Shown here piece after piece: positions 11 through 56,844 of a stretch of DNA of 64,000 nucleotides; position 1 is the first letter of the stretch; each line of letters begins with the position of its first letter. The notes below the pieces were generated by a model. It ran no database searches. It had not been told where the DNA came from and saw only the letters and a list, made by a program, of their open reading frames with translations. Origin of the DNA: Escherichia phage vB_EcoM-UFV11; the sequence record OP555982.1; one strand, written 5' to 3'. Both the position numbers and the translations under genes were made by a program.

Positions 11-2188
11 TTAGGCCGCAAGGGCCTTCATAGTTTTAGCGATTTGGGAAACTTCATCATCACTTAAAGAGTTGCGATAACCGATGAAGTCGGAAACAAT
101 ACGGAATTTCTTGGTAAACTCAGCAACCATTTTATCACTATTTTTTGAAGCATTACGTGATAATTCATCAAAGAGATTAGTTACTGTCCAGATATCATGA
201 CCGATGGTATCTTTTCCACCGTTGAAGTATACACCCTGTAATGAACTAACCATATTAGCGAGTCGTGTATATTCTTCAGAAACTTCATCTACACTGAAGT
301 ACTTCATCATAAAATCTAATTCAGGATACTTGATAATTTTATCAATATATCGTTTAGCTGAACTTGAATAACCTACATACTTATCATAATCTACATCATC
401 AAAAGCATCTACATATAAATCACGCAAAGCTTCAAAAATACATTGGCACTGACCGAGTTCTTTTACCTTTTTCTGTAAAAGCGGACGAATAACATAAAAT
501 TCATTAATGCCAATAAGATTAGCCATACGAATCAAAATATTCATAGATGGATGACAAAGCGATGTAGTACCATCCATAGAGAAAATATCAGAACGATGCA
601 TATACGCTACATAACCAGTAATTTCATCTGCTTCTGATGTGAGCGTAAATAGTTCCTCTTTTTCCCAGCGCCCGTCTTTAATTTCAAACTTAAATGCTGT
701 AGCAGCTTTAGGACGAGGAGCTTTACTTTTAACTACCTTTGGAATATAGCTTTTAACTAAAGCTTCAATTTCTGACAAATAATGAATGTTAACTTCATCA
801 CTTTCAAACATTGCCATAATATCAGGTAGTAAATCAATCTGCGATTCTACTTCCGGATTAATAAACAGAAGGCGTTCGTTATGATGAATATTCAAAGTGT
901 TATTAAATTCACTATCATCTAACGCTCGTGCTAATCCACGAACAATATTAACACGATTTTTAATATTATCAATAACGATATTAATTTTTGTTGTATTAAT
1001 ACCAAACAGACGATAACTTGATGCAACGGCTGAAGTTTCATGACTTTGCTTAATGCGCTTCAGTCGAGGGTCAAGATTTACTTCATACACAACTCCTGCA
1101 TTGCATAACTTACTGTCAGGTTCAAACATGCTCTGCATCTTCTTATATGACAGATTTTTAGTCGTGAATTTGACTGAATTACTAATCATATAATCTCGAG
1201 CAGAATACCCCATCTTCATCAATTCACGGTATGTGTGACGAGGAGATGTAGATTCTTTAAATCGTTTTACATCTTCATTAAATGCTTTCTCACTAAGCTC
1301 TTTAACTCGTTCAATAATATTTTTACGAGTGCGATCATCTAATGAAAGAGCTTCGCGTGATGGAGCAATATCCAGTGAACCCATTGGAAATTTAATGTAA
1401 TTCACTTCATTGCGAATGCTTAACCAGTTACGGTCTCTAATAACACCATCGATAGGATAAACAATACCGCCATAGATAGCGTACAATCCACCACGATCAG
1501 GCCAGTATCTTTCTGGATTTACACCGTAATAGTCATCAAAATCCGGAAAATAATCAATTTCGCGGTCAAGACCATTAATGATAGCCAAATCTTTGAATGG
1601 TCGCATGATATAAGAAACTTCATAAGCAAAGTTTCTAAAGTCTTTTTCTTCAACTGGAACTACGATTTCAATACCAGTTTTATCATTTGGACCCATTTCT
1701 TTTACGAATGTAGGTTTAATTTGTGGACCATCGCCATCCATGTAAGCTACATAACCACGAATTTCACCTTTATGATATGAAGTAATACTAAATGTATCAG
1801 TATAACTAAACGGAGATTTAGAACCTAAACCAAATCCACCAATGAAATCATTAGATTCAGCCTTAGATGAACTAAAGTATGAATTATACAACCCAGGAGA
1901 ATTATCATCACCCTGAATATCAAAATCACTCATACCCGGACCAAAATCTCGACAAACAAATCGTGGATCTAAACGTCCAGGAACTTGAATGATAAATTTT
2001 TCAGGATTTCCATTGAGAGCATGGGCATCAATCATGTTAGTAATCAATTCACGGACTACTGCGCGAATCTTGTTTGTATACAAATCAGATGACAGAATTT
2101 TAAATACTTTAGGAGATGCTGTGATGCTAAATGCTTTTGATTTAGAACCATTACCAAGAATTGTTTCTTTTTCAGTGGTGATAATCAT
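11..2188 (-). CDS. rIIA: rIIA protein (725 aa)
   Basis: 725-aa ORF, ATG at 2186-2188; N-terminus [16 protein letters not shown] and length match T-even rIIA as recalled. Confidence 0.93.
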
Positions 2189-2198
2189 AATTTCCTCA

Positions 2199-11695: not shown

Positions 11696-12298
11696 TTATA
11701 GATTAAATCCTTCAAAATCAAGAGTATAGATAGTGTATGTTGAATACTTTTTATACTCATATCTATCTGCAATTCTAAATACACTTCCAGCTGGTATCAT
11801 TACTTCTTGTTCATCTGAAACTAATTCCATATTACGATAACGATGGCTATCCGGAAACTTAAAGTTTGGATTGTATTCTTTACAGCGTAGAGCTTTTATA
11901 GCATACTCCTGGAAATTGAATACCATAGGAGCTTTGAATTCAAAAATAACCTGTGTGTTATACTCTAAACCAGAAGCAAAATGTAGAGCTATATTTTTAT
12001 CATATGAAGCTGATACGACTTTATCAAATGTAATAATATCAATTCCTTGATTTAACACCTGCTTAGTCTCAGCTGGAACACCTCTCCAAAGAGGTTTATC
12101 GTTTGGAACCAAACGAGATTTGATTATTTCATTTAACCAAGTATGGTCATCTGGTTTGTTGGTAATACAATGAATTAAAAGTTCAATTTCAGATAAATTA
12201 AACCCTTCAGAAAGTAATTCTTCACGAATAGAAGCACGCACCGATGCATCCATTGATTTTATTTTAAAATCTTTTAGTTGCATTACTGAGTATTTCAT
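11696..12298 (-). CDS. modA: ADP-ribosyltransferase ModA (200 aa)
   Basis: 200-aa ORF MKYSVMQLKDFKIKSMDASVRAS; T4 order. Confidence 0.8.
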   Translation of the reverse strand: MKYSVMQLKDFKIKSMDASVRASIREELLSEGFNLSEIELLIHCITNKPDDHTWLNEIIKSRLVPNDKPLWRGVPAETKQVLNQGIDIITFDKVVSASYDKNIALHFASGLEYNTQVIFEFKAPMVFNFQEYAIKALRCKEYNPNFKFPDSHRYRNMELVSDEQEVMIPAGSVFRIADRYEYKKYSTYTIYTLDFEGFNL

Positions 12299-54258: not shown

Positions 54259-54780
54259 TTATCCTTTCATTGAAGGTGTAACAGTTGTTAAATACTTAAT
54301 CATAGCTTCAGCTTCTGATTTTGATAATGAAATTTCTCCATTGTTTTGACGAATAGAAATAAAATCCGGATGACGGTCACCACCAGCTTTTAAAACACAC
54401 ATATAAGTATCAGTTTCATCTTCAATATCTGAAATGATTGAAGCAGTTCCGCATGAATGTGGTTTTTGATAAATCAATACAGCTTTTCTTCCACCATTTG
54501 ACTGTTCATAGGCTTTTAATACATCAAACAAATCAGTTCTTTTATCAATAGCTAAAATGTTATTTTCATCTTCAATGTTAAATCCTTCGGATACTTCATA
54601 AAGTGTTACCCATAAATCACCGATGTCAATAACAGCATTTCCTTTTCCACGACTTTCAAGAATATGACAAATTTTCTTTATTTCGTCATAACTCATTTTA
54701 ATAATATCATCTCCTTGAATAAGGAAGATGTCATTTTTAAATTTAACGCGAATTAAACCGCTTTCACTAGAAATAAACAT
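54259..54780 (-). CDS. hypothetical protein, paralog of 54787-55344
   Basis: 173-aa ORF; C-terminal SIRQ...EAEAMIKYLTTVTPSM matches neighbour. Confidence 0.5.
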   Translation of the reverse strand: MFISSESGLIRVKFKNDIFLIQGDDIIKMSYDEIKKICHILESRGKGNAVIDIGDLWVTLYEVSEGFNIEDENNILAIDKRTDLFDVLKAYEQSNGGRKAVLIYQKPHSCGTASIISDIEDETDTYMCVLKAGGDRHPDFISIRQNNGEISLSKSEAEAMIKYLTTVTPSMKG

Positions 54781-54786
54781 ATTTCC

Positions 54787-55344
54787 TCACTTTGAAATCA
54801 TAGTTGGAATAACAGAATCAAGATAAGTTTTTAGTGCAATAGCTTCGTCTTTGTTTAATGTAATGATATGTGATCGAAAATCGTCAATTTGACGAATAGA
54901 TACTACATCTCCCTCTTCATAGCATTTTGAAACATTTAAAATAGTTTCATCATTCTGATTACAGGAGTTAGTAATAATAGCATTACATTTTTTAAACCAT
55001 TTTAAATTATGTTTTCTTTTAGTAGAATCATAAAAATATTTAATGTTAGTTATAAAATTATCCCAATTATTAATTGATAAGCACATTGACTCGCTTTTAA
55101 TATTAAATCCTGGGCATGAAGAATAAAAATGAATTTTATGCTCATCATTAATGCTTACAATTTTATCAGTGTAAGCATATTCAATTTGGGTTAAACGAAC
55201 AATTTCACTAGGCGTAAAATATAACATGTCGTCTTCTTGCGTCAAACGATACATGTTATTTACTTTTTCGATCGCTAATTCACCAAAAAGCACACTATCT
55301 TCTAATACTAATCGTTTCATATTGATTCTCTTCGACTCACTCAC
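54787..55344 (-). CDS. hypothetical protein, paralog of 54259-54780
   Basis: 185-aa ORF; GTG start with SD GAGGAG. Confidence 0.5.
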   Translation of the reverse strand: MSESKRINMKRLVLEDSVLFGELAIEKVNNMYRLTQEDDMLYFTPSEIVRLTQIEYAYTDKIVSINDEHKIHFYSSCPGFNIKSESMCLSINNWDNFITNIKYFYDSTKRKHNLKWFKKCNAIITNSCNQNDETILNVSKCYEEGDVVSIRQIDDFRSHIITLNKDEAIALKTYLDSVIPTMISK

Positions 55345-55478
55345 AATTACATACTCCTCTGAATCATATCAATAATGTTGTTCACCAGATTATAAGTAAA
55401 CATTGGGTAATTATATTGAATCATCACATACACAACAAACAAAACTTTCATTCTCTTCTCCTTGGCAGTTGACAAGAT

Positions 55479-55509
55479 TACTATACCATAACCTTGCCAA
55501 CTTGTAAAC
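55479..55509 (-). promoter_or_regulatory. T4-type early promoter
   Basis: minus strand GTTTACAAGTTGGCAAGGTTATGGTATAGT. Confidence 0.5.
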
Positions 55510-55511
55510 CA

Positions 55512-55784
55512 TTAAATGACGTTTTCAATAAAATTCTGAAGCTTTGTGTGAGCATCAACCATGATTTTCATTTCTTCTTTGGCGAAAGCTGTACCTCTTT
55601 CCCGAGAAGAACACTCATAGTCAGAAACTGCATTAGCATATTCTTCAATTAGTTTCATTAAAAACATCTGCTTTTCAGTTTTCATTATTCCACCTAATCC
55701 CCGAGAAGAACACTCATAGTCAGAAACTGCATTAGCATATTCTTCAATTAGTTTCATTAAAAACATCTGCTTTTCAGTTTTCAT
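55512..55784 (-). CDS. hypothetical protein with internal 33-aa tandem duplication
   Basis: 90-aa ORF; MKTEKQMFLMKLIEEYANAVSDYECSSR occurs twice. Confidence 0.5.
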   Translation of the reverse strand: MKTEKQMFLMKLIEEYANAVSDYECSSRGLGGIMKTEKQMFLMKLIEEYANAVSDYECSSRERGTAFAKEEMKIMVDAHTKLQNFIENVI

Positions 55785-55798
55785 TATTCCACCTAATC
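55601..55798 (-). repeat. perfect 99-bp tandem direct duplication (2 copies)
   Basis: 55601-55699 identical to 55700-55798; each copy carries SD GGTGGA plus ATG. Confidence 0.85.
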
Positions 55799-55968
55799 AT
55801 TTCAAGATATTGAACTAACTTAGCTTTAGATTTATCCAAATCCTTTTTAGCTGCTTCTATACCGTCGTATGAATATCCTTCACAATGCTCAACTGCTAAT
55901 TGATATGAATCTATTTCAACATCACGTGCTAATTTAATGATTTTTTCAAACTGTTCGTGTGTCAGCAT
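55774..55968 (-). CDS. hypothetical protein
   Basis: 64-aa ORF. Confidence 0.45.
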   Translation of the reverse strand: MLTHEQFEKIIKLARDVEIDSYQLAVEHCEGYSYDGIEAAKKDLDKSKAKLVQYLEMIRWNNEN

Positions 55969-55970
55969 AC

Positions 55971-56174
55971 TTAAACTCTCGTATTGTGATCGATAATTTC
56001 ATCAAGAAACATATCTAAAGCTTCCACAGCATTATCAACTTTAGCTTCAAGTTCATCAATACCTTTATTTGCAATGCCTGACGAAAACCAAGCAAAGTCG
56101 CTAAGTTCCTCATCTGCTTTACGAATTAAAGCTACCAATTCCTTAATTTTATCCGCTTGTTCGATACTAATCAT
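55971..56174 (-). CDS. hypothetical protein
   Basis: ATG at 56174 with SD GGTGGA, overlaps upstream stop. Confidence 0.45.
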   Translation of the reverse strand: MISIEQADKIKELVALIRKADEELSDFAWFSSGIANKGIDELEAKVDNAVEALDMFLDEIIDHNTRV

Positions 56175-56362
56175 TATTCCACCACATATGAAAGAGAGAA
56201 TATTGCACATGCCATGTGAGTTGCAACTTCATCACACATATTATAACGTTTCTTAAGAAGTTCTACAAGTTTTTCACTAGTAACTTCATCCATGTTGACG
56301 AAAAAATCACCATTAATGATGACGTAGATATTTCCTTCTTGATTGAGTGCTTCAATTTTCAT
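56174..56362 (-). CDS. hypothetical protein
   Basis: ATG at 56362 with SD GAGGAG; ORF-track start lies within promoter. Confidence 0.45.
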
Positions 56363-56390
56363 GATGTTCTCCTCTTTATCCGATAGTTGT

Positions 56391-56420
56391 ATAGTATAAC
56401 AGCTCAAACGGAAAGTAAAC
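56391..56420 (-). promoter_or_regulatory. T4-type early promoter
   Basis: minus strand GTTTACTTTCCGTTTGAGCTGTTATACTAT. Confidence 0.5.
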
Positions 56421-56435
56421 CGGTAAAATGAAAAA

Positions 56436-56453
56436 AGTCTCCCGAAGGAGACT
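56436..56453 (-). terminator. hairpin AGUCUCC-UUCG-GGAGACU plus U-run
   Basis: 7-bp stem with UUCG loop; same cassette layout as 15047-15112. Confidence 0.6.
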
Positions 56454-56457
56454 AATG

Positions 56458-56844
56458 TTATTCGAGGGAAAGAAGATACTTACTCTGGTAAAACATCCCA
56501 GTAATATCATCTATCGTGCTTTGGATGGCTGGAGGCATTTCTTTATAAATGCTGTTAGATTGGTCTAGTATGCGATCAATCATTTTAATTGTGTCGGTAG
56601 GAAGTTTACTGGCATCTGGAATTGAAGGCGTGTATTTTCTACCAGAATACCCCAAATATTGCTCACCAAATTTATCAATCAAATCTGGCAACTCGGAAAA
56701 AATAAAATCGTATGCTTTGTGTCTAGCATAACTTTTAGTTTCAAAATGTGCAGAATGAAAATAAGCTTGTGCAGCCATTAATAAACCTAAGTATTCATCT
56801 GCCTTTGAAGGTTTTCCACTTTGTGAAAAGTCGCTGAATTTCAT
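56458..56844 (-). CDS. hypothetical protein (rI.-1 position)
   Basis: 128-aa ORF translationally coupled to rI. Confidence 0.55.

Follow-up and report, generated by a model that had tools for sequence, protein, structure and literature searches.

T4 is known for generating tandem duplications, and the classical examples from its rII region are much longer (kilobases), were genetically selected and are unstable. Repeats in phage sequence records can also be introduced by the assembly. De Bruijn contigs may carry a terminal overlap of k-mer length, described as '127 bp artificial overlaps' (PMC5923482), and in another work 127-bp terminal repeats were taken off before the genome was reopened (PMC8104045). 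Furthermore, when genomes were assembled by Shovill/SPAdes from short reads only, seven out of ten phages showed repeats of about 79 bp, and Sanger sequencing identified them as artefacts in most of these phages (PMC10438801). The Phage Annotation Guide advises the use of SPAdes and the re-opening of T4-like genomes after rIIB, with k-mer overlaps left unmentioned (PMC8785237).

The DNA analyzed here is a stretch of 64,000 nt from the record of Escherichia phage vB_EcoM-UFV11 (OP555982.1), referred to as the window in the following. It belongs to a Tequatrovirus (T4-like), is opened at the T4 convention and includes the mobD.1-mobD.5 / rI / tk region; both the window and the record of the sibling phage UFV09 begin with rIIA, a minus-strand gene at 12..2189. 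A preliminary description had reported a perfect 99-bp tandem duplication in this window, which is borne out by Tandem Repeats Finder as well as by direct string comparison. Positions 55601-55798 consist of two head-to-tail copies of 99 nt, set together with no spacer and identical in 99 of 99 bases. Tandem Repeats Finder returned a single array for this interval, with a period of 99, 2.0 copies, 100% matches, 0 indels and a score of 396. In the sense of the minus-strand gene, copy 1 (55601-55699) is the downstream one and copy 2 (55700-55798) the upstream one. The identity of the copies ends exactly at 198 nt, with T at base 55600 versus C at 55699 on one side and A at 55799 versus C at 55700 on the other. 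Ninety-nine adjacent identical bases cannot have arisen by chance, and an exhaustive scan of the 64-kb window at periods of 15-599 detected no second perfect tandem duplication. The novel junction between 55699 and 55700 reads ...TTCCACCTAATC up to the boundary and CCCGAGAAGAAC... beyond it, also written as ...TTTCATTATTCCACCTAATC followed by CCCGAGAAGAACACTCATAG.... Microhomology at the boundaries of the repeat amounts to 0 nt, and the only shared letters in their vicinity are ACCT, located 5-8 nt upstream of both ends.

On the minus strand, the 99-nt unit reads GATTAGGTGGAATA-ATG-AAAACTGAA...TCTCGGG. Each copy contains one Shine-Dalgarno sequence GGTGGA (55788-55793 and 55689-55694) and one ATG (55782-55784 and 55683-55685), and the coordinates in the preliminary description as well as its statement on these two elements are correct. 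The unit does not consist of 33 codons, as had been stated there, and is instead composed of a 14-nt leader with the Shine-Dalgarno sequence, followed by mobD.2a sequence for 28 codons and one further nucleotide. In each copy, the 14-nt leader also serves as the 3' terminus of mobD.3, the gene located upstream (55774..55968, minus strand; 64 aa, DUF7438 by Pfam). The last 25 nt of mobD.3, including its stop, lie inside copy 2 and are therefore also repeated in copy 1. Its TGA stop is found at 55774-55776, with a counterpart TGA in copy 1 at 55675-55677.

The duplication affects the annotation of mobD.2a. The genuine gene, with its own Shine-Dalgarno sequence and ATG, covers 55512..55685 on the minus strand and encodes 57 aa. 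An exact look-up found the identical 57-aa protein on 529 contigs under the names mobD.2a or DUF7438, and the protein matches the Pfam profile PF24219 (DUF7438) with E = 3.7e-15 and 56.5 bits over profile positions 1-56 of 57, the gathering cut-off of this profile being 25 bits. In UFV09, UFV10 and UFV06, mobD.2a is annotated as a CDS of 174 nt, compared to 273 nt in UFV11. The longer version is a chimeric open reading frame of 90 aa (55512..55784, minus strand), deposited as UYL84536.1, and the record can indeed be read, as the preliminary description did, as one gene with a second in-frame start inside it. This open reading frame translates as MKTEKQ...CSSR-GLGGI-MKTEKQ...CSSR-ERGTAF.... The N-terminal repeat is exact for 28 residues and not for the 33 that had been claimed: 29 of 33 positions are identical, with residues 29-33 (GLGGI) being the translated leader and residues 62-66 reading ERGTA. 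DUF7438 matches the 90-aa open reading frame in two stretches, and the full-length match at residues 34-88 corresponds to the ordinary protein. Among about 15 billion proteins, the exact look-up found the 90-aa form on 1 contig. Since this form is assigned to UFV11, the idea that the window could represent version 1 of the UFV09 record MZ291552 was dropped. Thus, the open reading frame at 55512..55784 is very probably a spurious product of the duplication. With regards to the sibling records described below and to this single occurrence, the protein with a repeated N-terminus that the preliminary description implied is very probably not real.

A comparison with related phages was carried out with the 1.5 kb around the repeat (55000-56500) as query, which matched 501 phage records. 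The listed records span 99 bases less than the query, save those with extra unrelated indels (e.g., T2). With the extra copy set aside, vB_EcoM-UFV05, 06, 09 and 10 show 100% identity to the query. The junction 55699/55700 was present in none of about 490 related Tequatrovirus records, all of which are single copy. A 100-nt query centered on the junction was never aligned as one piece among related phage records, and all twelve matches at 100% identity and coverage were composed of two pieces spanning 99 bases. Likewise, the 40-nt junction sequence gave no exact match in IMG/VR and none in the metagenome collection. Across its entire length, the window equals positions 2-63,902 of UFV09 (MZ291552.2) with 0 mismatches in 63.9 kb, save the extra 99-bp copy and a start shifted by 1 base.

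Taken literally, the record would describe a genuine and very recent in-frame duplication in the UFV11 stock, formed by replication slippage or illegitimate recombination in the course of T4-type recombination-dependent replication. By capturing a ribosome-binding site and a start codon, the locus would then keep its internal start for the 57-aa DUF7438 protein and, in addition, give rise to a 90-aa version in which the N-terminal helix is repeated. The preserved frame and the two intact Shine-Dalgarno and ATG sites are compatible with a viable variant, the locus is an array of DUF7438 paralogues (mobD.2a, mobD.3, mobD.4) with a history of duplication, and T4 is known to produce tandem duplications. 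Like the genuine T4 duplications of the rII region, the repeat in UFV11 is arranged head to tail in a T4-type genome. If true, it would represent a snapshot of the growth of the mobD.2a/.3/.4 array. However, homology at the end points, which is usual although not obligatory for such events, is 0 nt at the UFV11 junction, and this junction occurs in none of the about 490 related phage records, nor in IMG/VR or the metagenome collection, with the product limited to 1 contig.

The sibling records bear on this reading more directly, starting with their lengths: UFV11, UFV09 and UFV10 each comprise 165,859 bp, and UFV06 comprises 165,858 bp. UFV09 does not contain the extra copy found in the window and is yet as long as UFV11, therefore 99 extra bases had to be located elsewhere in UFV09. 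The complete UFV09 record was assembled from five stretches and scanned for perfect tandem duplications, which yielded exactly one on the genome-wide level, again with a period of 99. It is located at 148775-148972 within the gene of the long tail fibre gp34 (UXR08759.1, CDS of 3969 nt). A terminal overlap as the source of the extra bases in UFV09 was rejected, as these bases sit internally in gp34 and no terminal direct overlap of 10-399 nt was found at the ends of the record. The duplication in gp34 is private to UFV09, since the matching region comprises 702 nt in UFV05, UFV06, UFV10 and the other phages listed, compared to the 801 nt of the query.

For the two remaining siblings, the position of a duplication could be predicted from the coordinate offsets at the 55-kb and 148-kb sites. 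UFV10 is offset by +88 at both sites, therefore a 99-bp duplication was predicted before 55 kb, and UFV06 is offset by -11 and then by +87, which therefore placed the predicted duplication between 55 and 148 kb. Both predictions proved correct. UFV10 carries its 99-bp duplication at 11793-11990 in the gene of an ADP-ribosyltransferase (UYL84162.1), where the CDS has 702 nt instead of 603 nt, and that of UFV06 is found at 83384-83581 in the gene of the baseplate wedge protein gp8 (UYL84018.1), with a CDS of 1104 nt instead of 1005 nt. The gp8 site is single copy in UFV09, the one sibling compared. In UFV11, the corresponding position is 55,601 at the mobD.2a / mobD.3 junction, and the site 55601-55798 of the window holds one copy in all siblings. 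Offsets and record lengths leave no room for a further copy in UFV06, UFV09, UFV10 or UFV11.

Apart from the duplications, these genomes are virtually identical. After the duplications were collapsed, the window and UFV10 differed by 1 mismatch in 56.4 kb, and over 94.3 kb, UFV06 deviated from UFV09 by 4 mismatches and a single 1-nt gap. The unit length of the genome is 165,760 bp, and 165,859 bp is equivalent to 165,760 + 99, as read directly for UFV09; UFV06 has 165,858 bp with the one 1-nt gap. By the length arithmetic, the part of UFV11 beyond 64 kb should not contain the duplications of the other siblings. All four duplications are in frame, and each of the affected proteins is 33 residues longer. 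Shared bases at the duplication junctions are absent in three of the four records and amount to 1 nt in the fourth. The records of UFV06, UFV09, UFV10 and UFV11 come from one submitting laboratory and the same annotation pipeline.

In light of these data, a genuine duplication would require that four virtually identical phages had each independently gained a perfect 99 bp at four unrelated loci, or alternatively that the duplications of three siblings are coincidences or artefacts while the one in UFV11 alone is real. Moreover, two of the four lie in the structural genes of gp34 and gp8, which are single copy in the compared relatives, and all records would also have needed to keep an equal total length. 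From the classical T4 duplications, one would not expect repeats of one and the same length, 99 bp, at an unrelated site in each of four siblings. We consider a genuine duplication in UFV11 to be exceedingly improbable. Among the three readings offered in the preliminary description, the sibling records thus strongly favor the assembly artefact and speak against both a very recent duplication and an amplification intermediate.

Because four near-identical genomes carry one 99-bp duplication each, at unrelated positions and with a constant total length, the duplication in the window is almost certainly an artefact that arose when a de novo assembly was finished, rather than a part of the phage DNA itself. 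Since T4-type genomes are circularly permuted, a de Bruijn-graph assembler would close such a genome into a cycle and return it as a linear contig in which the first k bases recur at the end, with k = 99 in this case. This value is odd and is included in the standard SPAdes k series (21, 33, 55, 77, 99, 127). The contig would break at an arbitrary point, which for UFV11 may have fallen by chance within the mobD.3/mobD.2a junction, and copy 1 (55601-55699) would then represent the final 99 nt of the contig before its rotation and copy 2 (55700-55798) its first 99 nt. If the submitters cut this contig at the T4 start (rIIA end) and joined the old ends with the 99-nt overlap untrimmed, the joining would have set both copies head to tail at 55601-55798. 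A simulated rotation of the collapsed window with k = 99, a break at 55,600 and no trimming regenerates the window exactly.

The same sequence of steps would also explain the extended gene. As 99 is divisible by 3, the gene caller could stretch mobD.2a from 57 aa to 90 aa by using the upstream copy of the start. The in-frame property is not a sign of selection, because 99 = 33 x 3 and any insertion of 99 nt would share it. For these records, we infer which assembler was used, at which k it was run and that the contig was rotated by hand. A literature search found no paper describing the assembly methods for UFV05, 06, 09, 10 or 11, and neither the only paper that names UFV09 (PMC8468216) nor a Heliyon article on UFV13 (PMC11425119) contains assembly methods.

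Another step of the process could have added the 99 bases as well, such as circularization, scaffolding, a polishing tool or a slip during manual re-opening. The UFV09 record MZ291552 is at version 2 with many replaced protein ids, which indicates that records were reworked by hand, and the excess of UFV05 is a different one (+16 bp). However, exactly 99 bases in four records at four arbitrary positions are what is expected of a fixed k, and 99 is a standard setting of SPAdes. The literature describes this phenomenon for k = 127 and for repeats of about 79 bp (PMC5923482, PMC8104045, PMC10438801). A contribution of another step is therefore very unlikely in our view, and it would leave the verdict unchanged that the duplication is not biological.

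When compared to these published cases, the untrimmed contig overlap proposed for UFV11 agrees in several respects. As with the 127-bp SPAdes overlaps, the repeat is perfect and direct, its length would be equal to the k of the assembler (k = 99 as we infer it here), and its position bears no relation to the genes and changes whenever the same genome is assembled anew (PMC5923482, PMC8104045). Unlike these overlaps, the repeat in UFV11 is an internal tandem one and not situated at the contig ends, and its length is 99 rather than the commoner 127. The internal position would be due to the proposed rotation of the contig to the T4 start before trimming. The about 79-bp repeats of przondoviruses are likewise short perfect repeats that were introduced by assembly and lie inside deposited or draft phage genomes; they had no read support and were removed after validation (PMC10438801). 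Whereas those repeats lie in or close to the direct terminal repeats of T7-like genomes, the genome of UFV11 is circularly permuted and its repeat would mark the contig break.

Most likely, the 99-bp duplication is not a biological feature of UFV11. Its biological importance is nil, while its practical importance is modest but real and of a curatorial kind. The GenBank records of UFV06, UFV09, UFV10 and UFV11 need to be corrected for 99 spurious bases and one protein with 33 additional residues each, and the affected proteins (tail fibre, baseplate, ADP-ribosyltransferase and the 90-aa mobD.2a fusion) are already contained in protein databases. As a screening rule, a perfect tandem duplication that lies inside a rotated circular or permuted genome and has the length of a common assembler k (55, 77, 99, 127) should be regarded, by presumption, as a contig overlap left untrimmed. 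A comparison of sibling assemblies and record lengths can settle such cases without reads.

Several further observations were made on the surroundings of the repeat. On the minus strand at 55512-56174, mobD.2a (57 aa), mobD.3 (64 aa) and mobD.4 (67 aa) each give a full-length Pfam match to DUF7438, and being consecutive members of one family, they therefore form a tandem paralogue array. The next gene after mobD.4, mobD.5 (62 aa), has no Pfam match. A start context is common to mobD.2a and mobD.4, reading TCATTATTCCACC on the plus strand at 55682/55781 and 56171. Recombination between the DUF7438 paralogues or at this shared start motif was considered as a source of the repeat and rejected, as the repeat boundaries match neither the motif nor any homology; recombination at regulatory cassettes or paralogues also fails to explain the sibling records. 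A second tandem paralogue pair is located at 54259-55320 on the minus strand, in the place of the mobD homing-endonuclease region of T4. It consists of adjacent genes for a 173-aa protein and the 177-aa mobD.1, both with the N- and C-terminal domains of a y05I-like putative transcription factor (PF24449 + PF24448).

The records themselves showed additional anomalies. UFV05 (OP572230.1) comprises 165,776 bp, equivalent to 165,760 + 16, and stands outside the +99 scheme. Compared to UFV09, it is shifted by +7 at 55 kb and by +15 at 148 kb, and its rIIA CDS has been annotated only at 12..1385, while that of UFV09 extends over 12..2189. Such deviations suggest that UFV05 was assembled or finished by another route, which left small indels or frameshift errors. 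In MZ291552.2, the protein ids of the first version descend from QWT77034 to QWT76770 along version 2, therefore the orientation of version 1 was the reverse of the present one. Furthermore, new ids (UXR08726-UXR08762) were assigned to 37 proteins of this record. Among them is gp34, in which the 99-bp duplication is now found, and the artefact in UFV09 may therefore have originated, or changed its position, when the record was revised.

Finally, product names in this region deserve attention. In several RefSeq records, the open reading frames of T4 mobD.1/.4/.5 are named 'molybdopterin-guanine dinucleotide biosynthesis protein MobD', which looks like a collision of gene symbols (mobD of T4 being a mobile endonuclease locus) that has spread as a functional misannotation. 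One open reading frame of the region is named 'starvation-inducible transcriptional regulator' in RefSeq relatives, and in the UFV records, runs of nrdC.x open reading frames are all named 'thioredoxin'.
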